A DNA stretch of 64,000 nucleotides from contig CAZKCU010000001.1 of the NCBI GenBank assembly GCA_964551595.1, positions 65,246 through 129,245 on the forward strand, read 5' to 3'. The notes beneath the pieces are model-generated. The model had not been told where the DNA came from. It did no database searches and saw nothing but the letters and a program-made list of their open reading frames with translations. The translations under genes and the position numbers were made by a program. The first letter of the stretch is position 1, and each line of letters starts with the position of its first letter. Shown here in pieces: positions 12,907-31,624 of the stretch. The stretch is from an uncultured Candidatus Saccharibacteria bacterium (lineage in GTDB: Bacteria; Patescibacteriota; Minisyncoccia; Minisyncoccales; CAZKCU01).

Positions 12907-15900
12907 TCAATCAATGTCGGGTGTTGGTTCCTCCACTGCTGGTTCTTCAGCTGGTGGTTCTTCTGCAAGTGGTTCTTCTTCCGCAGGTGGTTCTTCTGCT
13001 GGTTCTTCAACTGCTGGTTCTTCAACTGCTGGTTCTTCAGACTTAGGCTCGGTATTACAACCTTCATTATACCAGAAACCTGCAGCAGTTTCACATTCAG
13101 CTTGGGTCGTACATAAGGTCAAGTGAGTTGCGTCGCAAACATCTGGTGTTGAACCATCAGTTAAATCATCGCTCCCTGAGTTGTCGGTATTTGATACCGA
13201 CAGACTATTACCATCACTCCCTTCTCCGCTTGAACCACTGTTACTATCAATACTTTGAATCTGGTTTTTCATCAACAATTCTTCCAATTGATTTTTGTCA
13301 ACGCAAATTGTTTCGCCATCATCTCCTTCAAGACATAATTTTTTGGCAAATATTTTTTCGGCAATCAATTCTCTCACCTTAACAATGCCATCCTTTATTA
13401 ATAATCCTAATTTCTCTAAGCTCTTTTTTATTGCTAAAGTAAATTGGTCTAAAATTGTTGGCTGTTCTTCCGAAGTTTCTGAAGAAGTCTCGTTGTTATC
13501 TATTAACTGTTCATTATCATCAGATGTGGCGAGCGAGCCGTCGTCTAAGAGCTGACCCAATGACCAGTGAGGATTAACAAAAACCATAATCTTACCAATT
13601 TCGCTTTCGACAGTGGTGCATTCTTCTGCTTCTTCATTCTTAGCAGTTTCTTCATTCCCAGTAATTACTGTTTCACATTGAGTTATAGTGCCATTAAACG
13701 GTTCTAAAGCCATTCCAATTACTCTTCCTGGCTCAGTGGATTTCATCGCAATTCCTGACTCTGAAGAAGAAGTTAAGGGATCGCCAACAGTAATCTCGCC
13801 TCCTTCCAAAGAAACCTTTACCGGCACATCTCCAAGGTAAGCTACTGGTATACCGGGGAATTCATCAAGTTCTAAATTGCCTTCTCTCATTTCTTCTTTC
13901 CAGTTATGGGGATAACTGATAAAACCTGCTTTTTCAGCTACCACTCCCAGGAGAGTGTTTTGATAAAGTAGAGAGGTTTTAGATACTTTTTTGTCTTCAC
14001 TAATTACTATTAATTCTCCAATTTCATAATCTTCTTTTTCTCCTTCAATGAAATGCATGGAAATATAGGGGGAGAAGGTACTCCAGGCTACATCAGCATA
14101 GGCAGTTCCATCTGTATCAAAACGGTATCTTTCTACTCCTCCTGAATAAATATGGAGAGGATAAGTTGGGTTCATGGTACCGATACCGACATTTCCTCCG
14201 TAAATAAATGAATCAGCATAAGAAACATATATCTGACCGCCAACCACCACTGCTGTCTGAATCTTACCGTCAGAAGACATGACTACCCCACGCCAGTATC
14301 TATCTGAATCTTTGGCTGTCCAGGTGTCACCGTAGTCGGTGGAAACATAGATCTGGCCATTATTCACTACCGCCGTCTGAACCTTACCGTCAGAAGATAT
14401 AGCCACTTCCCACCAGCTTCTACTTGAATCTTTGGCTGTCCAGGTATTGCCGTAGTCAGTGGAGACATAAATTTGGTCACCATCCGCCGCCGCCGTCTGA
14501 ACCTTACCGTCAGAAGACATGGCTATTCCAAGCCACCATCTATCTGAATCTTTGGCTGTCCAGGTATTGCCGTAGTCAGTGGAGACATAAATTTGGCCCC
14601 CATCATCCGTGGCCGTCTGAATCTTACCGTCAGAAGACATGGCCACCCCATACCAATCTCTACTCGAATCTTTAGCTGTCCAGGTATTGCCATAGTCTGT
14701 AGAGACATAGATTTGGCCGCTAGAAACCGTGGCTGTTTGAATTTTACCGTCCGAGGACATGGCTACTTTTTGCCAATTCCTACTTGAATCTTTGGCTGTC
14801 CAGGTATTGCCGTAGTCAGTGGAGACATAGATTTGGCCAGTCACGACCACCACTGTCTGAATCTTACCGTCAGAAGACATGGCTACTCCTCTCCAATCCC
14901 TACTTGAATCTTTGGCTGTCCAGGTATTGCCGTAGTCAGTGGAGACATAAATTTGGCCAGGAGCACCATCCGCTGCTGTCTGAACCTTGCCATCAGAGGA
15001 CATGGCTACTCCAAGCCAGCTTCTATCTGAATCTTTGGCTGTCCAGGTATTGCCGTAGTTAGCCAACCCCCACTGATTTTCTTTGACCCCAACTCTGCCA
15101 AAATACATTCCTCCTTCCAAACTTGAGAGTAAAACATTGTCAGTTGAAAGATAACCTGCCTTAAGGGTAGAAGATAAATCTCCAGCAATGGTTAGTTTTT
15201 GAAACGGACTCTCTGTCCCTATACCGACATTACCAGAAAAATAATGTTTATCTGACCCAGCAGCATAAATTCCATAATCATAATTAAAGCTATCTGCGTA
15301 AAGCTGTAGTCCGTAGGAAATTGTGGCTTTATCAGCTTGTAAGTTATTAGCAATCCTTAATCCCACAGCTTCTGTGATTGTCCCGCCCGTAGAACCATCA
15401 AGAATAAACTCTGCAGCACGCATTGTTGTAACACTATGGTCTTTAGAGTCAGCACTAATTGATAGACCTTCAAGAACGGCTACATCGTTTCCTTCATCTC
15501 CTGGAGCTTCTGTGCGTGCTTTTAATTCCATACCTCTGATTGTTCCTGTTGATGCTAAAATGCCATTGCTAATATCAATGTATGCTCCCCGTAGGGTACC
15601 GGTCATAGCAGTGTCATCGGTATGCAAGCCAGTAACCCGTAAAAGAGTATCCCCGCCTGCTGCTGTAGTAGTTTCGGAAAGATGTAATAAGTGGCTTGGA
15701 CTCGCTGTCCCGATGCCGACGTTGCCGGACTTATCAATAACCATTTTGCCTGCAGCATCACCATCTTGGACATAAAATAAATTGCTATCCTTGTAGGCCA
15801 CAAGCCCTGACTCAGTATCCCCCTGATAGGCAGAATCAAGAGTAAGATTGAGGTTACCAGTAATTTCGGAAACAGTAAAGATTTCTGACTTAATTTTAAT

Positions 15901-18900
15901 GGCGTCTCCTACAATCAACTCTGTGGTAAATGCTGTGCCAGTGCCCACTACAGCCGTAGATAGACTGGTCACTGCCACCGTGCCTGTTAGAGCGGTGTTT
16001 AAATTACCTTTGACATCTAAATTGGCGGTTGGTGCCGTTGTCCCGATACCTAAATTACCAGCGATATAAGCATCGCCGCTTTGTTTAACATAAAACTTAT
16101 CAACTTCAAAAACATCTTCTTGAGGGCCAGCGTTATCAAAATCAAAAATAGAAGGATGGCCACCGAAATTATTAGGATAGCCAAACCAAAAATGAGTATT
16201 AGTACCAAGAGCCAGACAATCTGAATTGGCAACGGTTACCGTTCCGGTTTGGACACTATCGGTGACGTTGAAAATAGTAAGTGTTAAGTTTACCGCATCT
16301 CTAGTGATAGTAATTCGGTATTCTTTGGCAAAATCAATAGTTATTCCTAGCCAGTTGCTCGAACCAGTTTGCCAAGTAGTCCCGTTATAATAATATTTTA
16401 TGTTGTTTTGGTCAGTTCTAGTTAGAGTAGGATTAGGATAGTAGCTATAGAAACCAAGATGGAGCAAACTAGTCGAAGTTGACCAATAATCAAATTCGCC
16501 AGTAGGCGAATTGGTCCCGGTCCAAATACCGAACTTGACGCCACAATAATTCGAGCCTTCGCAATAATTTTTAAGAGCTTCCACTTGGTAGCCGAAAGTT
16601 GAACCAATATTATTAGTAGTTCTTAGATAAACGTATGTTCCGCTAGTCGCAGCATAGCTGGCCCGATAAACACCGCTAGTTACTTGGCCATCACTACCAC
16701 CACCTTCGTAGTTGGTAAAGATACCATAAGTTTCACCATTATCTAAAGCAGCATCGGTATCAAATGTTTCTAGTGTTATAGGAGCATTAAAAATTCTTAG
16801 AAGTTTGCTTGATGCTCCTTCTCCTGAAGTACGTCCATAGATTTTTCCTAAAACTTCAAGTTTAACGGACGGATTGGTCGTCCCGATTCCGACGTTGCCA
16901 TCAACAGTGGCTAAAGCAGTGGTGGCAGTGCTTCTTAAGGTACCATAAACATCCAAAGCATATGCTGGCGTTGCCATCCCGATGCCCACGTTGCCGCCAA
17001 GAAAAGCAGCAGTATAGTTGTTTGTAGCGCCAGTTTGAGTATTGACGGTTAAGCCATAGGAGTTAGTAGCTCCAGCCGCAACCGCTCCAGCTTGAATCAA
17101 GAGTCCATGAGTGTTTGTAAGTGTTGCATTTGTACCTGCTATTGGAGCACCTGCGACCGCTAATGTAGCAGCATCTGTAATAGTGCTTGCTCCAACAAAC
17201 GAATAAGTCGGAGCTGTAATTAGAACCTCCCTTTGAGTTGTTAATGCTCCTGTTGCCCATTGCCTGCCAGCAGTTGTAATAGTTACGGCTGGTATTTCTG
17301 TTGAGAGCGTTTGATCGGTATTAACTGCTCCAGTATAAACAATGCCTGTTAATTCTCCTGTTGCTGTTGCCGTTTGTACAACTTGGAATTTTGCTGTAGG
17401 ATTCGTCGTCCCAATGCCGACATTGCCGTCTCCGTCTATAACTAAACGGGTAGTCAGTTGGCCACCACCTCCAGTGTTTTCATAGCCATAGCAATATGTC
17501 TGCTGGTTTCCAATCAATAAATCATAATCTCCGTCATTGTCTAGGTCGGCAAAGGCTGGACCAGCCCAAGCACTCACATCAGGAGTATCCCAGCTGGATT
17601 TTGCTATCCAAGTTGGGCTGGAAACAGTTCCGGTGTTTTCATAGCCATAGCTTATTCCACTATTGTCTCCAATCAATAAATCATAATCTAAATCATCGTC
17701 TAAGTCGGCAAAGGCTGGGCTAGCCCGAGTTCCCACATCAGAGGTATCCCAGTCTGATTTTGCTTCCCAGGTTGGACTGGAAACAGTCCCGGTGTTTTCA
17801 TAACCATAACTATATCCATCACTCGCTCCAATCAATAAATCATAATCTAAATCATTGTCTAAGTCGGCAAAGGCTGGTCTACTATAATCTCCCACATCAG
17901 GAACATTCCAGTCTGATTTTGCTGCCCAAGTTGGGCTGGAAACAGTTCCGGTATTTTCATAGCCAATGCTTATCCCATTCTCGGTTCCAATCAATAAATC
18001 ATAATCTAAATCATTGTCTAAGTCGGCAAAGGCTGGGGCAGCTTGCTTTCCTGCATCAGGGGGATCCCAGTCGCCTTTTCTTGTCCAGGTTGGACTGGAA
18101 ACAGTTCCAGTGTTCTCATAAGCATAGCTGTATCCGTTAGGCACTGATCCGTTCGAACCCACCCCAATCAATAAATCATAATCTAAATCATTGTCTAAGT
18201 CGGCAAAGGCTGGTCTAGGGTCAGCAGGCCCAGAAACATCCCAGTCAGATTCTGCTGCCCAGAAATCTATTGACTGCAGGCTTTTAAACAAGAAGGAGGA
18301 AAGACCAGTCTGAAGAATAGTTTCATTGTCTAAAGAAAGAATAGTATCGAGATATCTGTTAGCATCGTATCTTACTGATAACTGGGAAGTAGTAGTACTG
18401 GTAATTCTGACTTGACCAGCAATATCTAATTCCACCTCCGGGCTGGCTGTGGCAACACCGACCTTGCCGCTGGTTTCATACAAAACAGAATCAGTCAAAT
18501 CGGTGCTGGTGTTCCATTTAGGCAGATAGCCAGCAGTTCCGCTTCCAGTTACTCCTCCGGCTCCAGCAATGGTTGTCCAAGCCAAACTACCTGAGCCATC
18601 ATCCTTCAAAAACCCATCAGCAGTATGAGCAGAAGGCCAAGAATAGGTAAGGTTTTTTAGCTTGATAATATCTCCAGAACTATCTACCTGGAATTGAGAA
18701 GCAGAACCAACAGAAAAAAGAGAAGTAGGACTGGCTGTGCCGATGCCGATATTACCTCCATCATCTAAAACTAATTGATTACTAACTCCGTCAACATTCA
18801 TTACCAAATCACCATTAGAATCTACTTGAAAGTCAGCATAGACTGATTCATCTGCCTGAGTAAGACGAAGTTGAGGGTTAGAAGCGTCTAAAACGTCTAA

Positions 18901-21900
18901 TTTCCTATCTGGTCCAGTTGTGCCGATGCCGACGTTGCCCCCACTGGTGATAGATAAAGTTCCGCTGGAGCCACCAATAGTGCCACCAGAAGATAATTGA
19001 ATATCAGCTGTATAGTCAAAGGAATCACGGTAGATTTGAAGACCATAAGAAGTAGTGGCTATATTTGCCTGGAAGTTGTTAGCAATCCTTAAGCCGACAG
19101 CTGTAGTAACACTGGCTCCTGTTTGACCGTCTAAGATAAGTTCTGCTCCTCTTAAGGTGATGACAGTTTCATCCTTAGCATCAGCTGAAGCTGAGATTGC
19201 TTCCAGAGTGCCGACTGAACCTCCTGTCAGGTCAGAACCTGCAGCTCTGGCTTTAACTTCTATTCCTCTGATAGTGCCAGAGGAGCTGTCAAGTTCTCCG
19301 TTGGTGGCAACAAAGTAGCCAGCCCTTAGAGTGCCTGTTAAGGCATTGGTTCCTTGGGTCACCAAACTTCTTATTCCTTCGTCTCCTCCAACTGCTGTCT
19401 GGGTATAGCTAAGATCGAGCTTGGCCCCAGGATTTGTCGTCCCGATGCCCAGATTACCCTCTCCAGTTATTACCATGTTAGGAGTGGTGGCGGTAGCTAA
19501 GGCAGTAAAGAGATAGTTTTTGACTGTTACTCCTGAACTATGGGTAGCGGCCGTTGTTCCCAAAGCCCCTCTGGTTAAACCAGTAAACACGGTGTCGCTC
19601 TTATTTGTATAAGTCATAGCTTCTGAATCAATTAGCAAGGTTCCAACCGAAGGATAACCAGAGGTAGAGGCAACAGTGGCAGTAGTCTGACTGTCAGTCA
19701 TATCAGCTGAAAGGGTAGTATAGGTTGTCGGTGCCTGACCAACTCTTGTCCCTCCCGCCACCTCTAATCTTTCATAGGGTGCTGTCGTAGCGACGCCAAC
19801 TTTACCGTCTTGGTCTATAACTAAACGGGTAGTCAGTTGACCACCACTTCCGGTGTTCTCATAGGCATAACTTACTCCACCAGTGGCTCCAATCAATAAA
19901 TCATCATCTCCGTCATCGTCTAAGTCGGCAAGGGCAGGTCTAGCAGATCCCACATCAGGAGCATCCCAGTCAGATTTTCTTGTCCAGGCTGGGCTGGAAA
20001 CAGTTCCTGTGTTCTCATAGGCATAAACTCTATCACCACTGGCTCCAGTCAATAAATCATAATCTCCGTCATCGTCTAAGTCGGCAAGGGCAGGTGAAGA
20101 ATAAGAAAGTCCCACACTAGGAGCATCCCAGTCAGATTCTCTTGTCCAGGCTGGGCTGGAAACAGTTCCTGTGTTCTCATAACCCAAACTTACTCCGCTA
20201 ATTTCTCTAATCAATAAATCATAATCTCCGTCATTGTCTAAATCGGCAAAGCCAGGGCCACTCCCAGTCCCCACATCAGAGACATCCCAGTCAGATTTTC
20301 TTGTCCAGGTTGGGCTGGAAACAGTTCCGGTGTTCTCATAGGCATAACTTATTCCATCAAAGCTTCCAATCAATAAATCATAATCTCCGTCATCGTCTAA
20401 GTCGGCAAGGGCAGGAGCAGGCATAAGATCGCCTATATCAGGAGCATCCCAGTCAGATTCTCTTGTCCAGGCTGGGCTGGAAACAGTTCCTGTGTTCTCA
20501 TAGCCATAGCTTTGTCCATAATATCTTCCAATCAATAAATCATAATCTCCGTCATCGTCTAAGTCGGCAAAGGCAGGAGCAGAATAAGTTCCTACATCAG
20601 GGGCATCCCAGTCAGATTTTCTTGTCCAAAAATAAACTGCTTGCTGTAGACTCTTAAACAAGAAAGAGGAAAAACCAGTCTGAAAAGTGGTTTCACCTGA
20701 AGAAAGGAGGGTATTGAGATACTTGGCAGCATCGTATCTTACTGATAACTGGGGAGTGGTAGTGCTGGTAATTCTGGCTTGGCCAGCAATATCTAATTCC
20801 ACTTCCGGGCTGGCTGTGGCAATGCCAATATTGCCTCCAGTTTCATATAAAACAGAATCAGTCAAAGTAGTGCTGGTGCTCCATTTGGGAATGTATCCAG
20901 CAGTTCCGCTGCCAGTTACTCCTCCTGCTCCGCCAATGGTTGTCCAGGTTAAGGTTCCTGAACCGTCATCTTTTAAGAAACCATCAGCAGTATGAGATGA
21001 AGGCCAAGAATAGGTAAGGTTTTTTAGTTTGATAATATCTCCAGAAGTATCTATCTGGAATTGGGAAGAGGCACCAACAGAAAAAAGGGAAGTAGGGCTT
21101 GCCGTCCCGATGCCGACGTTGCCGCCATCGTCAGCTAAAATGACGTAACCCTTGGTAGCATCAGAAGTTGTTCTTAAAGTAAGATTACCCGAGGCAGCCG
21201 AAGAACCATAAATAATTGGAGAGGTAACTGAGGTTGAGAAAACAGGATTATTTATGGTAGCTATTGTTACATTACCTCCAGCTCCTCCATCAGTTACTGA
21301 AATATTGGTTCCGGCGGTTAAGACTCTTTCATCGGTTAAAGTGGCATTGACTGCTAAGGTAACGTACTGGGCGTCAGTGGGCACGCCGCCGCCAACCGCG
21401 CCCCATGATGTTCCGTTGTACATGTCGTACTGGTTGGTGGTTGTGTTGTAAATGAAAAGTCCTGTTGCTGGTGAAGAGATAGCATCTCTTTGGGCTTCTG
21501 TCATTCGCGGGGCAAGAAATCCTTTCTCCGTCGAGGTGAGGTCCAACAACGCCGTCGCCGCCGGCCCCGTCGTCCCGATGCCAATATTCCCGCCGGTCTG
21601 ATAGAGAATAGAATTTCCTAAACTGCCGGAGCTGGTCCAGATTGAAAGATAATTGGCAGAACCTGAACCGCCAATACCTCCTCCTCCACCACCACCAACC
21701 CGCAAAGTGCTCAAACACCTGCCGCCTTTCAAATCAGTACAAATATCACCTGTTGCCTGAATCCTTCCCTCAACATGGAAAGGATGAGCAGGATCTTCAA
21801 TTCCAATTCCAACATTACCGACTGAATCAATAGCAATTGCTACCCCCCCAAGGTATAAATCGCTGATTGAAGAATCTCTAACTTCCTGAGCAGAAATAAA

Positions 21901-22803
21901 TTTAGCTAATCTGTTGGGGGTGCCGCCAAGGGTAATTACTTCTCCTTCTAAACCAAAACAATTTCCGGTAGCTAAACAAACAGTTCCGGATAAATCTGGA
22001 AAATTATATTCTCTCTCAACAGTAAGTCCGGCAGCAGTAATTCTTCCTTCAAATTCATTTCTGATTAAAGCGAAACTTGGGGCAGTTATTTTTTCTTTTG
22101 CTTTTAAAAGAGCGTTAATAGCTGTTTCAGCATTGATAGTAAGATAGGGTTCAACAGCCGGAAGGCTAAAAACTTCTTCGCGAAGAGAAGAAGCCGGCAA
22201 TTGAGTTAATTTTCTAAATCCACTTATATGTTCGCTTATATTAGCTAAAAAATAAGGAATTGGATCTATAAAATTAATTTTTTCATCTGTAAAAAAAAGG
22301 GTTGAAACGCAAATTAAAACCAAAAGCACAATTTTTAAAATAGCCGGTATTTTTACAAAGGGTTTTCTTTCAATAATAATTTCAGGAGTTTCTTTGATTT
22401 CCAATTCTTCTCCTTTTTCTTTTTCTGTTTGCGGAACTTCAGTTTTTAACTGAAAAGATTCAATTCCCGGACCATACATATATGTATGGGGAGTAGTAAT
22501 TTTTGGCAGCTTTTTCTCAAAAACTTTTTCTTCTTCCTCTCTTTTTATTTCCTGAATACTCTTTCCGGCTTTTAATTTTTTGTCAATCTCAAGCAAAATT
22601 CCAAGAGTGCTTTCCAAGTAAGCACCGTTTGGAGGCAGACCGTTAAAAGACTTTCTTTGAAGATGTGGCAAAAGACCGATTTTGACGTAATAGCGCAGAC
22701 GATTTTTAGGGTCACCTTTTCCAAAATCAACTCCAAGTCTTCTTGCTCTAGCAATAAATTCTTCAATGCTTATTAAATTTTCATTTTTATTCTCTATTGA
22801 CAT
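12907..22803 (-). CDS. Giant (3,298 aa) single-pass mosaic surface protein with a cytoplasmic MerR-like HTH N-terminus
   Basis: Uninterrupted 9.9-kb ORF. Aa 1-95 are MerR-like (RLRYYVKIGLLP...SIQEIK). One TM helix at aa ~152-172 (IPAILKIVLLVLICVSTLFFT). Then GN(V/I)GIGT-punctuated tail-fibre-like segments, 2x5 FG-GAP-like repeats, 7 Asp-box blades, a C-terminal beta domain, a Cys-rich segment and an E/P/A/V tail. Confidence 0.9.
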   Translation of the reverse strand: MSIENKNENLISIEEFIARARRLGVDFGKGDPKNRLRYYVKIGLLPHLQRKSFNGLPPNGAYLESTLGILLEIDKKLKAGKSIQEIKREEEEKVFEKKLPKITTPHTYMYGPGIESFQLKTEVPQTEKEKGEELEIKETPEIIIERKPFVKIPAILKIVLLVLICVSTLFFTDEKINFIDPIPYFLANISEHISGFRKLTQLPASSLREEVFSLPAVEPYLTINAETAINALLKAKEKITAPSFALIRNEFEGRITAAGLTVEREYNFPDLSGTVCLATGNCFGLEGEVITLGGTPNRLAKFISAQEVRDSSISDLYLGGVAIAIDSVGNVGIGIEDPAHPFHVEGRIQATGDICTDLKGGRCLSTLRVGGGGGGGIGGSGSANYLSIWTSSGSLGNSILYQTGGNIGIGTTGPAATALLDLTSTEKGFLAPRMTEAQRDAISSPATGLFIYNTTTNQYDMYNGTSWGAVGGGVPTDAQYVTLAVNATLTDERVLTAGTNISVTDGGAGGNVTIATINNPVFSTSVTSPIIYGSSAASGNLTLRTTSDATKGYVILADDGGNVGIGTASPTSLFSVGASSQFQIDTSGDIIKLKNLTYSWPSSHTADGFLKDDGSGTLTWTTIGGAGGVTGSGTAGYIPKWSTSTTLTDSVLYETGGNIGIATASPEVELDIAGQARITSTTTPQLSVRYDAAKYLNTLLSSGETTFQTGFSSFLFKSLQQAVYFWTRKSDWDAPDVGTYSAPAFADLDDDGDYDLLIGRYYGQSYGYENTGTVSSPAWTRESDWDAPDIGDLMPAPALADLDDDGDYDLLIGSFDGISYAYENTGTVSSPTWTRKSDWDVSDVGTGSGPGFADLDNDGDYDLLIREISGVSLGYENTGTVSSPAWTRESDWDAPSVGLSYSSPALADLDDDGDYDLLTGASGDRVYAYENTGTVSSPAWTRKSDWDAPDVGSARPALADLDDDGDDDLLIGATGGVSYAYENTGSGGQLTTRLVIDQDGKVGVATTAPYERLEVAGGTRVGQAPTTYTTLSADMTDSQTTATVASTSGYPSVGTLLIDSEAMTYTNKSDTVFTGLTRGALGTTAATHSSGVTVKNYLFTALATATTPNMVITGEGNLGIGTTNPGAKLDLSYTQTAVGGDEGIRSLVTQGTNALTGTLRAGYFVATNGELDSSSGTIRGIEVKARAAGSDLTGGSVGTLEAISASADAKDETVITLRGAELILDGQTGASVTTAVGLRIANNFQANIATTSYGLQIYRDSFDYTADIQLSSGGTIGGSSGTLSITSGGNVGIGTTGPDRKLDVLDASNPQLRLTQADESVYADFQVDSNGDLVMNVDGVSNQLVLDDGGNIGIGTASPTSLFSVGSASQFQVDSSGDIIKLKNLTYSWPSAHTADGFLKDDGSGSLAWTTIAGAGGVTGSGTAGYLPKWNTSTDLTDSVLYETSGKVGVATASPEVELDIAGQVRITSTTTSQLSVRYDANRYLDTILSLDNETILQTGLSSFLFKSLQSIDFWAAESDWDVSGPADPRPAFADLDNDLDYDLLIGVGSNGSVPNGYSYAYENTGTVSSPTWTRKGDWDPPDAGKQAAPAFADLDNDLDYDLLIGTENGISIGYENTGTVSSPTWAAKSDWNVPDVGDYSRPAFADLDNDLDYDLLIGASDGYSYGYENTGTVSSPTWEAKSDWDTSDVGTRASPAFADLDDDLDYDLLIGDNSGISYGYENTGTVSSPTWIAKSSWDTPDVSAWAGPAFADLDNDGDYDLLIGNQQTYCYGYENTGGGGQLTTRLVIDGDGNVGIGTTNPTAKFQVVQTATATGELTGIVYTGAVNTDQTLSTEIPAVTITTAGRQWATGALTTQREVLITAPTYSFVGASTITDAATLAVAGAPIAGTNATLTNTHGLLIQAGAVAAGATNSYGLTVNTQTGATNNYTAAFLGGNVGIGMATPAYALDVYGTLRSTATTALATVDGNVGIGTTNPSVKLEVLGKIYGRTSGEGASSKLLRIFNAPITLETFDTDAALDNGETYGIFTNYEGGGSDGQVTSGVYRASYAATSGTYVYLRTTNNIGSTFGYQVEALKNYCEGSNYCGVKFGIWTGTNSPTGEFDYWSTSTSLLHLGFYSYYPNPTLTRTDQNNIKYYYNGTTWQTGSSNWLGITIDFAKEYRITITRDAVNLTLTIFNVTDSVQTGTVTVANSDCLALGTNTHFWFGYPNNFGGHPSIFDFDNAGPQEDVFEVDKFYVKQSGDAYIAGNLGIGTTAPTANLDVKGNLNTALTGTVAVTSLSTAVVGTGTAFTTELIVGDAIKIKSEIFTVSEITGNLNLTLDSAYQGDTESGLVAYKDSNLFYVQDGDAAGKMVIDKSGNVGIGTASPSHLLHLSETTTAAGGDTLLRVTGLHTDDTAMTGTLRGAYIDISNGILASTGTIRGMELKARTEAPGDEGNDVAVLEGLSISADSKDHSVTTMRAAEFILDGSTGGTITEAVGLRIANNLQADKATISYGLQLYADSFNYDYGIYAAGSDKHYFSGNVGIGTESPFQKLTIAGDLSSTLKAGYLSTDNVLLSSLEGGMYFGRVGVKENQWGLANYGNTWTAKDSDRSWLGVAMSSDGKVQTAADGAPGQIYVSTDYGNTWTAKDSSRDWRGVAMSSDGKIQTVVVVTGQIYVSTDYGNTWTAKDSSRNWQKVAMSSDGKIQTATVSSGQIYVSTDYGNTWTAKDSSRDWYGVAMSSDGKIQTATDDGGQIYVSTDYGNTWTAKDSDRWWLGIAMSSDGKVQTAAADGDQIYVSTDYGNTWTAKDSSRSWWEVAISSDGKVQTAVVNNGQIYVSTDYGDTWTAKDSDRYWRGVVMSSDGKIQTAVVVGGQIYVSYADSFIYGGNVGIGTMNPTYPLHIYSGGVERYRFDTDGTAYADVAWSTFSPYISMHFIEGEKEDYEIGELIVISEDKKVSKTSLLYQNTLLGVVAEKAGFISYPHNWKEEMREGNLELDEFPGIPVAYLGDVPVKVSLEGGEITVGDPLTSSSESGIAMKSTEPGRVIGMALEPFNGTITQCETVITGNEETAKNEEAEECTTVESEIGKIMVFVNPHWSLGQLLDDGSLATSDDNEQLIDNNETSSETSEEQPTILDQFTLAIKKSLEKLGLLIKDGIVKVRELIAEKIFAKKLCLEGDDGETICVDKNQLEELLMKNQIQSIDSNSGSSGEGSDGNSLSVSNTDNSGSDDLTDGSTPDVCDATHLTLCTTQAECETAAGFWYNEGCNTEPKSEEPAVEEPAVEEPAEEPPAEEEPLAEEPPAEEPAVEEPTPDID
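12910..13041 (-). repeat. Low-complexity (E/P/A/V) C-terminal tail of the giant protein
   Basis: EEPAVEEPAVEEPAEEPPAEEEPLAEEPPAEEPAVEEP encoded by reiterated GGTTCTTC(W)GC units. Confidence 0.85.
13182..13206. repeat. Palindromic 25-26-nt element, copy inside the giant gene
   Basis: TGTCGGTAT-TTG-ATACCGACAGACT. The reverse complement of 51204-51229 matches at 25 of 26 positions. Confidence 0.8.
13690..14030 (-). other. C-terminal beta-rich domain of the giant protein, homologous to the ectodomain of the c-like protein at 24386-24688
   Basis: GELIVISEDKK..YQNTLLGVV...PVAYLGDVPVKVSLEGGEITVGDPLTSSSESGIAMK..GRVIGMALEPFN aligns with [19 protein letters not shown]...[48 protein letters not shown]. 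Confidence 0.7.
14222..15080 (-). repeat. Seven tandem 120-nt (40-aa) Asp-box/BNR blades (predicted 7-bladed beta-propeller)
   Basis: GQIYVSTDYGNTWTAKDSSR.W.GVAMSSDGK(I/V)QTA occurs 7 times. S-x-D-x-G-x-T-W is present in each unit. The DNA motif GAATCTTTGGCTGTCCAGGT recurs at exactly 120-nt spacing (14303, 14423 ... 15023). Confidence 0.9.
17400..18765 (-). repeat. Duplicated ~1.35-kb module B (stalk segment plus 5 FG-GAP repeats)
   Basis: DDGGNIGIGTASPTSLFSVGSASQFQVDSSGDIIKLKNLTYSWPSAHTADGFLKDDGSGS... parallels module A residue for residue, about 2.36 kb away. Confidence 0.85.
17460..18268 (-). repeat. FG-GAP/VCBS-like repeat block 2 (5 units of ~53 aa)
   Basis: PAFADLDNDLDYDLLIG....YGYENTGTVSSPTW..KSDWD occurs 5 times. 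DxDxDGDYD is a Ca-binding-type motif. Confidence 0.85.
19775..21132 (-). repeat. Duplicated ~1.35-kb module A (stalk segment plus 5 FG-GAP repeats)
   Basis: DDGGNVGIGTASPTSLFSVGASSQFQIDTSGDIIKLKNLTYSWPSSHTADGFLKDDGSGT... then 5 FG-GAP units, ending GGQLTTRLVIDQDGKVGVATTAP. Confidence 0.85.
19849..20640 (-). repeat. FG-GAP/VCBS-like repeat block 1 (5 units)
   Basis: PA(F/L)ADLDDDGDYDLLIG....Y(A/G)YENTGTVSSPAWTR(K/E)SDWDAPD occurs 5 times. Confidence 0.85.
22519..22803 (-). other. MerR-like helix-turn-helix domain at the N-terminus of the giant protein
   Basis: ISIEEFIARARRLGV...NRLRYYVKIGLLPHLQRK...AYLESTLGILLEIDKKLKAGKSIQEIK has the MerR pattern (HTH, R.Y...GLL.P, then a helix ending G.s..eI). 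Comparison is from memory of MerR-family sequences. Confidence 0.55.
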
Positions 22804-22916
22804 AATCTTTTAGGTTTGGTAAACTTCAACGCAGAAGACCCATACTGAAGCACATAAATATTTTATGTATTCAGCAAAAAAGCGACTAATTTTTTCCTAA
22901 TCTTTGGCGCTTATCG

Positions 22917-22947
22917 CTCTCTTAAATTTTGAAAAAATTTGAGAGAG
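22917..22947. other. 14-bp hairpin with GAA triloop
   Basis: CTCTCTTAAATTTT-GAA-AAAATTTGAGAGAG (one G-T wobble). Confidence 0.6.
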
Positions 22948-23094
22948 TAAACGGGTCTTCTTTTTTTATCTTTTTATCTTATTTTTCTTTAGGAAATCAT
23001 TTCCCGTGACGGGAAATAAATCGATTATTTCATTATCTTTGAAGTAAACACCCTTGTCAAGGGCTACAATTGTGGAAAACTTCATCTATAAATA

Positions 23095-23265
23095 TAGTCG
23101 AAGAACATCCGTTCTTCTTCACTCACCGAGTCTCGTTTGCGGGACGAAGGTGGAAAAGAGTGCGGAGCGCTCTTTGACTTCGCTGCGACTCGGGTAGGCG
23201 AAGAGATAAATCTCTTCTTCACCCTTCATTGCGATTCGAGTAACCGAGAAATCTAAAGTCCAAAG
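23095..23265. ncRNA. GC-enriched multi-hairpin region (candidate structured RNA, class unknown)
   Basis: Nested or adjacent stems: GAAGAAC-ATCC-GTTCTTC; GTCTCG-TTTG-CGGGAC; AAAGAGTG-CGGAG-CGCTCTTT; CCGAGTC...GACTCGG; GAAGAG-ATAAAT-CTCTTC. Noticeably more GC-rich than its surroundings. No ORF. Confidence 0.3.
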
Positions 23266-23439
23266 CACTAAATCACAAACTCAAAATAGTTTTGAATTTT
23301 GACATTACCTGTCCGCTGTAAGTTTTGCCCTTGGTAAAATTTGGGCGGATTAGGTTAAATTCCCGCCGCGGGAAAAAGAATATTTCTGAAAATAAGGGAT
23401 AAAGTTTGGAAACTGAACCAAACATGTTATAATTAGGCA

Positions 23440-25018
<1,579 letters not shown>

Positions 25019-25019
25019 T

Positions 25020-25676
25020 ATGAATACTCAAATTTTCCTTATTATTTTGCTTGGCTTTGGCATTTTGGCAATAATGGCAGTAATTTTATTTGGCTTAGAT
25101 ATTTATTATTTAGCGAAAAGGTCCAAAAAAGAAAAAGAAGAAAAGGACGTTATATCTTTAAAATTCTCTGAAGGATTCTTATTAGAATTAGAAAAAATGA
25201 TTAACCAGGAAACAGAGAAGACTATTTCGGAAATCAGCCAAAAAATTGCCGATGAAGTAATAGAATCTTATAAAGAACAAATAGCCGTTTTTTCCCAAGA
25301 AGCAGAAAATAAGATAGCTAATTGGGATGAAATAACCAACAACGAAATTTTAAAATTCAGCAATACCTGCTCTCAGGCCGAAGATTCAATATTACAAGGG
25401 GCAAAAAAAAGAACGGATGAATTAAGCAAAGGTCTGGATGAAAAAATCGGCCGAATTTACCAGACGGCTACAAAATCCATAAACCAAAAAATTGCCCAAA
25501 CCGAAAAGAATATTGAAGATTATAAAAAAGAAAAATTAAAAGAGATAGACCAAAAAATTTATCAAATAATAGAAGATGTGGCAAAGAAAACAATCGGAAA
25601 AGCAATTGATCTTTCTACTCACGAAGAATTAGTTCTACAAGCTTTAGAAAAAGCAAAAAAGGAAAAAATTTTATAA
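25020..25676 (+). CDS. atpF: F-type ATPase subunit b-like (single TM plus long coiled coil)
   Basis: One N-terminal TM, a charged helical remainder, and a C-terminal IGKAIDLSTHEELVLQALEKA like b subunits. Positioned before delta. Confidence 0.7.
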   Translation: MNTQIFLIILLGFGILAIMAVILFGLDIYYLAKRSKKEKEEKDVISLKFSEGFLLELEKMINQETEKTISEISQKIADEVIESYKEQIAVFSQEAENKIANWDEITNNEILKFSNTCSQAEDSILQGAKKRTDELSKGLDEKIGRIYQTATKSINQKIAQTEKNIEDYKKEKLKEIDQKIYQIIEDVAKKTIGKAIDLSTHEELVLQALEKAKKEKIL

Positions 25677-30523: not shown

Positions 30524-31624
30524 TTATTTTAAAGGCAGATTAAAATAAAAGGTTGTGCCTTTCCCTTCCTCTGATTGAAACCAAATTTTTCCGTTATGAG
30601 CTTCAATGATATTTTTTACAATGAAAAGACCGAGACCGTTTCCTTCAGTTTCCATTTTAACAGCATTTGATCCTCTAAAAAATTTTTTAAAAACATTTTG
30701 CTGCTGGTTCTCAGGAATTCCGATTCCGGTATCCTCAATTGAAAATTCTATTTCTTTTTCTGTAGAATTTAAAGTAATAGTTATCATGCCTCCCGGTAAA
30801 TTATATCTAATGGCATTATCTAAAAGATTCTGAATCGCCAAAGGCATCTTTTCGGTATCAATTTTAATTTTTGGCAATTTCTTACTTGGAACCCGGAATT
30901 CAAATTTAATTTGCTTCTTTCTAATTTTCTCCTGATAAGATTCTATAACTGATTGGATAACTTCTTCAAAGTTAGAAAGAGTTAATTTATAAAGACGCCT
31001 GCCTTCTTCTATTCTGACTACATCTAAAAGGTCATCAATAAGAGCAAGCATCCTTTTATTAGAATCATAAGCCTTTTCAAGTATTTCCTTTTGTCCTTCT
31101 GTTAATTTTCCTAATTTTTCTTTTGATAATGTTTCCAACGTCCATTTAATCTCTGAAAGCGGCGTCCTCAGCTGATGGGCAGAGATAGAAACAAATTCAG
31201 TCTTCATCCTTTTAATTGTTTTTTCTCTGGTAATATCGTGGAGAATAATTAGGCTGCCAAGTTTTTTTCCTTCTTTCAAAATTGGAAGAGAAGTTATTTC
31301 TAAAATTAAATTTTTTCTAATTTCCAATTCCTTTCTAAAAACTTCTTTGATTTCTTTTCCTAAAAGATAAAATAAATTTTTAAGATTGGGGAAATTTATA
31401 AATTCAACAATTGATTTACCTAAAATCTCTTTTTCAATCTCAAAAATTTTTTTGGCCACAGGATTAATTAATGAAAGTTTTCCTTCCTTGTCAAAGACCA
31501 TTAGCCCATCGGCCAAGTTATCAATAATGGTTAGAATTTTCTCTTTCTCTTCCCGGGCGTCAGCGAAAAGGGAAGAAGAAGATTTATCTTCTTCGCCCTC
31601 TTCAATATCTTTTTGATTTATCAT
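30524..31624 (-). CDS. Cytoplasmic PAS-domain sensor histidine kinase
   Basis: 366 aa. No TM segment. H-box SISAHQLRTPL, N-box NLLDNAIRY, G-boxes DTGIGIP and GNGLGL. Confidence 0.9.
   Translation of the reverse strand: MINQKDIEEGEEDKSSSSLFADAREEKEKILTIIDNLADGLMVFDKEGKLSLINPVAKKIFEIEKEILGKSIVEFINFPNLKNLFYLLGKEIKEVFRKELEIRKNLILEITSLPILKEGKKLGSLIILHDITREKTIKRMKTEFVSISAHQLRTPLSEIKWTLETLSKEKLGKLTEGQKEILEKAYDSNKRMLALIDDLLDVVRIEEGRRLYKLTLSNFEEVIQSVIESYQEKIRKKQIKFEFRVPSKKLPKIKIDTEKMPLAIQNLLDNAIRYNLPGGMITITLNSTEKEIEFSIEDTGIGIPENQQQNVFKKFFRGSNAVKMETEGNGLGLFIVKNIIEAHNGKIWFQSEEGKGTTFYFNLPLK

Follow-up and report, generated by a model that had tools for sequence, protein, structure and literature searches.

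A hairpin-rich spacer between a giant surface-protein gene and a domesticated transposase gene in a Patescibacteria-like genome as a probable composite control region

Here, we analyze a 64,000-nucleotide stretch of contig CAZKCU010000001.1 from an uncultured Candidatus Saccharibacteria bacterium, referred to as the window, and within it a spacer of 636 nt that separates two divergent genes, one encoding a giant surface protein and the other a transposase derivative. An earlier note, made from the sequence alone, had described this spacer as a noncoding chain of hairpins. We think it moderately probable that it is a composite divergent control region, comprising a small-RNA gene, palindromes, the relic end of an insertion sequence (IS), and a mobile hairpin cluster, and not a single RNA.
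22804-23439: spacer between the divergent giant gene (minus strand) and transposase-derived gene (plus strand)
12907..22803, minus strand: giant gene, 3298 aa, with FG-GAP and BNR repeats; N-terminus conserved in all syntenic relatives
23440..24210, plus strand: transposase-derived gene, 256 aa, with a zinc ribbon, a helix-turn-helix-like region, and a degenerate DDE domain

The locus was compared with relatives reached through the transposase-derived protein. The exact protein was found on metagenome contigs (JGI 3300031650, locus L001; L numbers designate relative loci, the named ones being Patescibacteria/Parcubacteria metagenome-assembled genomes), and 835 members were counted in its family at E<=1e-5. 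Syntenic loci were fetched via exact-protein look-up, complemented by scans of genome contigs and metagenome contigs seeded by protein alignment. About 20 distinct lineages share the order of large minus-strand gene, spacer, and transposase-derived gene. Alignment of the closest lineages resolved the spacer into a mosaic of conserved blocks, and its GC-rich core is not found in L086 (83% identity) or L083 (80% protein identity). On the plus strand the whole spacer folds with -197.2 kcal/mol, compared to -139 kcal/mol for shuffled sequences (z -9.3), and on the minus strand with -172.8 kcal/mol (z -7.2). The earlier note had recognized no known RNA family and no credible open reading frame (ORF) in the spacer, and our searches agree on both counts. 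The Rfam 15 covariance models gave no match in the spacer at the gathering score or at E<=10 beyond a chance level of 12-18 bits, and none at E<=1 in 10 related loci. The sole gene called in the spacer, encoding 39 aa (L001 2527-2646, equivalent to window 22966-23085, minus strand), spans a promoter and a palindrome and is interrupted by a stop codon in L086.

The giant-gene-proximal part of the spacer holds a conserved structured block, module A.
22833..22967, plus strand: module A, candidate small RNA, delimited by fold, covariance model, and covariation
22797..22825, plus strand: candidate small-RNA promoter, with -35 TTGACA (22797-22802), 17-nt spacing, and -10 TAAACT (22820-22825)
22833-22841 with 22953-22961, plus strand: P1, closing stem, GAAGACCC/GGGTCTTC
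22845-22874, plus strand: P2, first hairpin of module A, variable in relatives
22880-22912, plus strand: P3, second, bipartite hairpin with the C/U-rich loop UUUUCSACC
22916-22948, plus strand: P4, last junction arm, present only in the window, L086, and L095
22962-22967, plus strand: U-run directly 3' of P1

The minimum-free-energy fold of 22828-22970 is a four-way junction closed by P1 (z -7.06). Two of the stems reported in the earlier note belong to this junction and lie where it had placed them, namely the pairing of GAAGACCC (22834-22841) with GGGTCTTC (22953-22960) in P1, and the 14-bp stem with a GAA loop that constitutes P4 (22917-22930/22934-22947; 93% complementary). A covariance model, R1, built from three module A members, matched 17 distinct sequences. 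All of them share one syntenic location, on the strand of the transposase-derived gene and 0.3-1.1 kb upstream of it, and the 750 kb searched gave no further matches. The module measures 90-135 nt across relatives, in which a closing stem of 11-13 bp recurs together with a first hairpin that varies, a linker rich in A, and a bipartite second hairpin. In almost all 17 members the GC-rich closing stem, over this set 9-13 bp long, is followed by at least four and mostly six to eight U; in L135 the U-run is broken by a G (UUGUUUUU). L003 (57% identity) is without module A and keeps the other conserved blocks.

The earlier note had suggested a search for conservation and covariation in relatives, and both were found for module A. 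In a digest of the stems of the 17 members, for which the first and last 11 nt were taken as the P1 columns, P1 was paired at 96.8% and 6 of its 11 pairs were changed on both sides (for example, GAGGGCUCGCG/CGCGAGCCCUC in L156). The overall covariation score was 0.726, compared to 0.169 for shuffled sequences (0/500) and 0.05-0.14 for slid registers. RNAalifold, applied to a plain MAFFT alignment, recovered P1 only, because the sequences of the inner hairpins do not align; the covariance model and the stem digest were therefore used.

The candidate promoter matches the consensus at 10/12 positions and additionally carries TG. Its -35 overlaps the start codon of the giant gene (CAT at 22801-22803). 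CTTGACA is unvarying, and a TAAAnT-like -10 follows at the same 17-nt spacing, in the seven aligned relatives and in the others; this holds for CTTGACA both where it lies in coding sequence (window and L086) and where it lies in the 5' untranslated region (UTR; L002 and L083). From the TAAAnT box to the first paired A of module A the distance is 7-8 nt, and in the window it is 7 nt to A22833. We also considered a conserved small ORF, either on the module A minus strand or spanning the promoter, and rejected it: the AUG of L014/L016 lacks conservation, and in L086 the 39-aa call is disrupted. We propose that a small RNA of ~130 nt is transcribed rightward from a sigma-70-type promoter, starting at A22833, and that it folds into the closing stem around two or three hairpins, with closing stem and U-run together acting as an intrinsic terminator.

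The giant gene would be transcribed against this small RNA.
23032..23060, minus strand: giant-gene promoter, with -35 TTGACA (23060-23055), 17-nt spacing, and -10 GATAAT (23037-23032)
22804..23025, minus strand: predicted giant-gene 5' UTR, starting ~7 nt after the -10 and containing the module A complement
23071..23081, minus strand: motif GTTTTCCACAA, ~10 nt upstream of the minus-strand -35

This promoter, matching the consensus at 11/12 positions, is the only conserved minus-strand promoter in the spacer. Its TTGACA is unvarying in 17 relatives, and its -10 is TATnAT/GATAAT-like in most of them and poorer (GAAAAT, ATAAAA) in a few; the GTTTTCCACAA/GTTTTCCACA motif is found at the same spacing in most relatives. 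Since no promoter would fit between module A and the ATG, the giant-gene mRNA would have a leader of ~220 nt that includes the module A complement. With the leader transcribed through module A, the small RNA would be its perfect cis-antisense partner. Antisense pairing and/or collision of transcription complexes might thus tune the giant surface-protein gene, the two promoters lying face-to-face at a distance of 230 nt. Independently of this, the minus-strand GTTTTCCACA motif (23071-23081) resembles, in the same sense, the P3 loop of module A (22889-22902; UUUUCSACC).

Short length, an own constitutive-looking promoter, stem-loops, a closing terminator, and a position opposite the 5' leader of a putative target gene, with face-to-face promoters, are features that module A shares with cis-encoded antisense RNAs that end in an intrinsic terminator, such as the plasmid copy-control RNAs CopA and RNA I, or Sok of hok/sok. 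In contrast to these, it is chromosomal, resides in a Patescibacteria-like genome opposite a gene for a surface protein of 3298 aa, and is predicted to fold as a multi-branch junction that the terminator stem closes; it is unrelated to any Rfam family.

Outside module A, the spacer contains two copies of a palindrome, both of which the earlier note had located correctly.
23000..23016, no strand: palindrome site 1, TTTCCCG-TGA-CGGGAAA, centered at ~+17 of the predicted giant-gene transcript
23360..23374, no strand: palindrome site 2, TTCCCG-CCG-CGGGAA, centered 73 nt upstream of the ATG

The pattern TTCCCG-N3-CGGGAA occurs twice in the 64 kb (at 23001 and 23360), both times in the spacer, compared to 0.10 occurrences expected; site 2 ends 65 nt ahead of the ATG at 23440. 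Nearly all relatives have site 1, at a distance from the minus-strand -35 of 44 nt in seven lineages and of 45 nt in L003. In the window, L091, L100, and L003, site 2 is found at -80/-72 counted from the ATG, and a TTCCTG variant of it occurs in L082, L014, L016, L097, and L135. Perfect TTCCCG/CGGGAA arms were seen in 17 of 36 pattern matches from relatives, at least 3 of the 36 being spurious. Extra isolated or duplicated CACGGGAAAT half-sites are present in L091, L100, L087, and L016. We suggest that both palindromes are recognition elements for a sequence-specific factor, for which the transposase derivative or the giant-protein N-terminus, with its weak match to MerR (PF00376, E 0.0034), would be candidates. 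The idea that the two palindromes are the ends of a 376-bp element was rejected, as the flanking extension is not kept in relatives.

At its other end the spacer runs into the remains of an IS.
23396..23420, plus strand: relic left terminal inverted repeat (IRL), GGGATAAAGTTTGGAAACTGAACCA, matching the repeats that flank intact IS1595-family copies
23406..23433, plus strand: promoter of the transposase-derived gene, with -35 TTGGAA within the relic IRL, 16-nt spacing, and TG-TATAAT

The protein encoded next to this repeat matches the Pfam families DDE_Tnp_IS1595 (6e-8) and Zn_ribbon_IS1595 (1e-4). Intact homologs (L012, L007, and archaeal multi-copy ones) keep VEVDETYLGG, CSDTW..YTG, and a further 15-letter stretch. 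In the clade of the window, VEVDETY is changed to MKLGKDY, with loss of the first catalytic aspartate, CSDTW to SEEW, SEDW, or QASW, with loss of the second, and segments of 17 aa and 6 aa are deleted relative to the intact homologs; only the E-x7-K motif, the zinc ribbon, and the helix-turn-helix-like region are still conserved. The gene is single-copy, and its place beside the giant gene is the same in all relatives examined (50-100% protein identity). More distant homologs are multi-copy in Methanomicrobiales. Its downstream neighbor is the ATP synthase operon in most lineages, including the window, and a sensor-kinase pair in L091/L100. With the catalytic aspartates lost, the right-hand repeat lacking, and the synteny fixed, the gene is, as judged from its sequence, a domesticated, catalytically degenerate IS1595-family transposase and not an IS.

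The GGGATAAAGTTTGGAAACTGAACCA block is conserved well beyond the clade that has module A. A catalytically intact copy in L012 is bounded by AGGGTAAAGTTCGAAAAATGAACCAA at both ends, L007 has the inverted repeats GGGTAAAGTTTGAAAATCGTACC, and in the window a single left copy was found and no right-hand inverted repeat. The promoter matches the consensus at 10/12 positions and has the additional TG, and the same arrangement is present in eight relatives. Because its -10 ends so near the ATG, 6-7 nt away in all eight lineages checked (6 nt in the window, 23428-23442), the mRNA of the transposase-derived gene is probably leaderless. We propose that the 45 nt immediately preceding the ATG represent the relic left repeat, which now supplies the -35 of this promoter, and that the transposase derivative probably still binds the relic repeat and autoregulates its own gene. 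The likeness to IS1595-family elements (ISXO2-like DDE transposases with an N-terminal zinc ribbon) extends over the Pfam domains, the 25 nt upstream, which match the repeat of intact relatives, and the placement of the promoter -35 inside the left repeat, as in many IS. It differs from these elements in the replacement of the first two aspartates, the two deleted segments, the lack of a right repeat, the single copy, and the conserved position. In L002 (2218, 2265, 2431), L090, and L097, two or three relic-repeat motifs (GTTTGAAAAYTGAACCA) in the same orientation lie upstream, each with a possible -35/-10.

The GC-rich core, noticed in the earlier note together with a duplicated hairpin-TTCAC module, is of a different nature.
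23094..23246, plus strand: GC-rich core, a cluster of mini-elements; homologous copies elsewhere, absent in L086 and L083
23094-23132, plus strand: unit 1, truncated
23122-23198, probably inverted: middle unit, matching the short form in reverse orientation
23194-23246, plus strand: unit 3, direct

The core has a G+C content of 0.51-0.60, compared to a window mean of 0.37, and the duplicated module, 28 nt long, is found at 23095 and 23195 (0.03 expected). It folds with z -3.43 on the plus and -1.38 on the minus strand. Its building block is a mini-element of ~53 nt, the short form of which consists of a hairpin, TYCACCCTTCGC, a short spacer/hairpin, and GCTCGGGTA. A short-form profile detected copies in relatives at E 1e-13 to 2e-6 (nhmmer) and the window units at E 1.4e-10 and 5e-8. 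Because the middle part matches the short form reversed, the core probably comprises two direct units and one inverted unit. In all, 10 or more copies were found in five lineages. L083 has one between two ATP synthase genes (blastn, E 4e-7). Among the three copies of L091, one lies between module A and site 1, a position other than that in the window, and one after the stop codon of the transposase-derived gene. L100 has two or more, one in a position equivalent to that in the window and one near a response-regulator gene, and L097 also carries a copy. The P0 hairpin of 10 copies is 98.6% paired, with a covariation score of 0.478 compared to 0.154.

Mobility of the mini-element follows from a filled and empty site pair and from an in-frame insertion. 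L094, from another sample, aligns to the window at 100% identity over 2345 nt and at 99.7% over the 2137 nt that come next. Between these segments (L094 2346-2397) it carries a copy of 52-53 nt, GGCGATGAAGCTAAAGCTTCATCTTCACCCTCGCTTCCTTCGGAAGCTCGGT[A], at the position of window 25018/25019, where the window represents the empty site. The insertion is placed exactly between the TAA (25016-25018; ORF 24245..25018) and the ATG (25020) of genes of the ATP synthase operon, with a target duplication of at most 1 nt, and a larger variant of the mini-element occupies the same 25018/25019 junction in L083. In L091 (2496-2555), and likewise in L092 and L102, a 60-nt copy (nhmmer, E 2.8e-8) is inserted in frame in the transposase-derived gene and adds 20 aa, VDYPSEAKGGDEGKPEGVNF; these residues are missing from L100, the window, L086, L083, and L093. 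Another possible case was seen in the window itself at 31552-31597 (minus strand; ORF 30524..31624), where a weak match (nhmmer, E 0.017) with the hairpin GAAGAAGA-TAAA-TCTTCTTC lies in frame in the N-terminus of a histidine kinase (EEGEEDKSSSSLFADAREEKE); going by this match, it may be a second in-frame insertion.

We propose that the core arose by recent insertion of two to three copies of this REP/BIME- or RPE-like mini-element into an insertion-tolerant stretch, and it is probably without function at this site. The suggestion in the earlier note of an accumulation of hairpin repeats thus holds for the GC-rich core, as a dispersed and recently mobile element, and fails for the rest of the spacer. 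A point against it is that the 64 kb hold only the one cluster and the one weak match; blastn of the spacer against the rest of the window revealed no dispersed copies, and the weak match was the only addition made by the subsequent profile search. The variable stretch is regarded as an insertion-tolerant gap because the sequences occupying it are unrelated between lineages and absent in several. Long near-perfect hairpins, unrelated to the mini-element (stems of ~15-20 bp, CCCCCAC... or CCCCGTAG...), were observed in this stretch in L093 (1720-1836), L090 (60-145), and L083 (1950-2020), the last being situated between the giant-gene start and the module A promoter. At window 23300-23345, a hairpin AGUUUUGCC-CUU-GGUAAAAUU within CCGC...GCGG, with two G.U pairs on the plus strand, is common only to the closest relative, L082.

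The mini-element resembles the REP/BIME and REPIN elements of proteobacteria and the BOX elements of Streptococcus pneumoniae. Its small hairpin units are richer in GC than the genome, dispersed between genes, and often clustered, both directly and inverted; it is modular, with a long and a short form; its stems are kept by compensatory change; and no clear target-site duplication was seen. Clustering and nesting have been described for BOX, RUP, and SPRITE (PMC10969869). It belongs, however, to another sequence family and host phylum, and instead of a fixed GTAG it has TAG/TAC 2-3 nt before the hairpin in ~6/10 copies (TAGTCG and TAGGCG in the window, TAGTCG in L097, GTAGCC in L091, and CTACTC twice in L100), the triplet being absent in L091_b and the L094 insertion. 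In its occurrence both between genes and in frame in a conserved gene that stays open, this palindromic mini-element resembles the Rickettsia palindromic elements (RPE), for which in-frame insertions have been described (PMC10969869). It is shorter than RPE (~53-60 versus ~100-150 nt), unrelated in sequence and host, and has one secure in-frame case. No RAYT or other mobilizing gene was identified in a non-exhaustive screen of the ORFs in the 64 kb. Derivation as a miniature inverted-repeat transposable element of the adjacent IS was rejected, as the ends of the mini-element, ACCGAGC and GCTCGGGTA (in some copies only), are unrelated to the IS1595-type repeat GGGTAAAGTTTGAAAA. A similarity of CCACCCTTCGC in the mini-element to the antisense of the AKGG codons in the transposase-derived gene was judged coincidental. 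In viral contigs, the motif gave three chance matches in GC-rich contigs, none with a hairpin.

Several observations weigh against the composite reading of the spacer and have to be set against rival explanations. The promoters, the terminator, and the start sites are assigned by consensus; the P2 and P3 columns of the stem digest were chosen from the minimum-energy fold of each sequence itself, so that only P1 is free of choice; and the sampling is limited to relatives reached through the transposase-derived protein. Moreover, module A is equally stable on both strands (mean -42.2 versus -41.9 kcal/mol, the plus strand being better in 8/17), and the fold by itself is compatible with either a small RNA or a structured leader of the giant gene. 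The strand assignment thus rests on promoter and terminator. Module A might accordingly be read as a minus-strand 5' leader of the giant gene, serving as a cis-regulatory element or protein platform, with an incidental plus-strand promoter and U-run. The earlier note had included a large leader or regulatory RNA of the giant gene among its options, and the overlap of module A with the predicted 5' UTR speaks for that part of its claim. A minus-strand leader necessarily carries the mirror image of the structure, its folds are just as stable (z -4 to -8), and the P3 loop has a purine-rich, Shine-Dalgarno-like complement (GGUSGAAAA). Yet this reading leaves unaccounted for the unvarying CTTGACA at 17 nt from TAAAnT and 7-8 nt from the first paired base, with or without coding overlap, and the run of at least four U directly 3' of P1 in almost all 17 members, for which a minus-strand A-run has no obvious role; nor was there a conserved small ORF or an Rfam match to a leader or riboswitch. 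The invariant promoter and the U-run terminator argue for an independent small RNA encoded opposite the leader, and we consider the leader alone a rather unlikely explanation.

For the palindromes the balance is closer. As plus-strand hairpins in RNA or single-stranded DNA, they could serve as a back-up terminator or as a processing/recognition hairpin, for instance, and not as double-stranded operators, a reading that we regard as a real, if less favored, possibility. Over all pattern matches, 24 substitutions fall in the 5' arm versus 9 in the 3' arm, those in the 5' arm are mostly C->T as read on the plus strand, which retains G.U pairing on that strand only, and one two-step compensation (T.G to T-A) leads from L015 to L126. 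This pattern fits a plus-strand hairpin better than a symmetric protein operator, though the counts are uncorrected for shared ancestry. The spacer also folds 24 kcal/mol better on the plus strand, and U-rich sequence follows site 1 in several relatives. Against a hairpin speak arms that are nearly unvarying where the flanks have wholly diverged, as a structure-only constraint would not yield such constancy, half-sites without a partner in L091 and L100, the constant 44 nt between site 1 and the minus-strand -35, and the lack of an evident plus-strand promoter upstream of site 2. The substitution pattern could discriminate the DNA reading from the RNA reading.

Two functional roles were weighed for the core. 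A guide or regulatory RNA serving the transposase-like protein, as proposed in the earlier note, is not borne out. Such an RNA, whether guide, bridge, omega-type, or TIGR/CRISPR-like array, and whether formed by the core or the whole spacer, could draw on the better-than-shuffled plus-strand fold of the core, its two direct hairpin modules 100 nt apart, and the adjoining transposase-family gene. The core is, however, absent, different, or replaced in relatives retaining this gene at 80-91% identity, and the same element occurs away from it, in the ATP synthase operon and inside coding sequence. The protein itself is a syntenic, single-copy DDE-family derivative devoid of catalytic aspartates, not TnpB, IscB, or an IS110-type protein, and no such partner is adjacent. 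TIGR arrays, which occur in this phylum, have 36-nt units in 5-15 repeats beside a Nop-domain protein (PMC12045711); an array of this or the CRISPR type was rejected, given only two modules and neighboring proteins without Nop or Cas domains. A guide-RNA role of the core is essentially excluded, and we assign a structured RNA serving the transposase-like protein hardly any probability. Co-option of the core as a transcription barrier or RNA stabilizer between the divergent promoters seems improbable to us. It would be in line with the L100 copy at the same relative position, directly after a CTGTGGATAAC motif, and with the long hairpins at that spot in L093 and L090, but the sequences there are unrelated across lineages and absent in several, and the core has no conserved locus-specific feature. 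Neutral insertion of the mini-element is the explanation that we prefer.

Giant surface proteins are thought to mediate host attachment. In the giant protein of the window, the N-terminal 120 aa (22444-22803, minus strand), with a conserved LISIEEFIARARRLGVDFGKGDPKNRLRYYVKIGLLP, gave the MerR helix-turn-helix match mentioned above, which is below the cutoff, and a hydrophobic segment lies at aa ~155-172, before the FG-GAP/BNR repeats. To judge by these features, it may be membrane anchored with a cytoplasmic DNA-binding head. On the other side of the transposase-derived gene, between it and the gene for ATP synthase delta, the ORFs 24245-25018 and 25020-25676 sit where the a and b subunits are expected and had no Pfam match at E<=0.01.

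Each part of this locus resembles a known kind and none belongs by sequence to a described family, given the empty Rfam result and a mini-element unrelated to the IS repeat. To our knowledge, almost nothing has been charted of noncoding regulation or of small mobile repeats in Patescibacteria (Candidate Phyla Radiation), and in the literature searched we found nothing on such mobile hairpins, small RNAs, or IS1595 domestication in this phylum. It is tempting to speculate, as an unlikely combination, that a dead IS1595 transposase acting on its relic repeat and a clade-specific cis-antisense RNA jointly control the giant protein, and that the mini-element is the first RPE-like repeat of the phylum. 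If this were true, an IS taken over by its host would form a single regulatory cassette, in which the dead transposase perhaps also binds the CGGGAA palindromes, controlling a surface protein of 3298 aa in an episymbiotic Patescibacteria lineage, and no RPE-like mobile repeat that remodels proteins through in-frame insertion would have been described in the phylum before the ~53-nt element.

Current concepts are not overturned by these findings. The locus offers a candidate small-RNA family opposite a giant-gene leader, for which promoter, terminator, and covarying fold are defined, and a view of a transposase after domestication whose former inverted repeat would be reused as a promoter. It also offers a mini-element for which a filled site can be cleanly compared with its empty counterpart and which has inserted in frame in a protein; in metagenome-assembled genomes, this element may be a source of apparent protein indels. 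Together, these parts would account for the odd spacer and provide entry points for metatranscriptomics and annotation.

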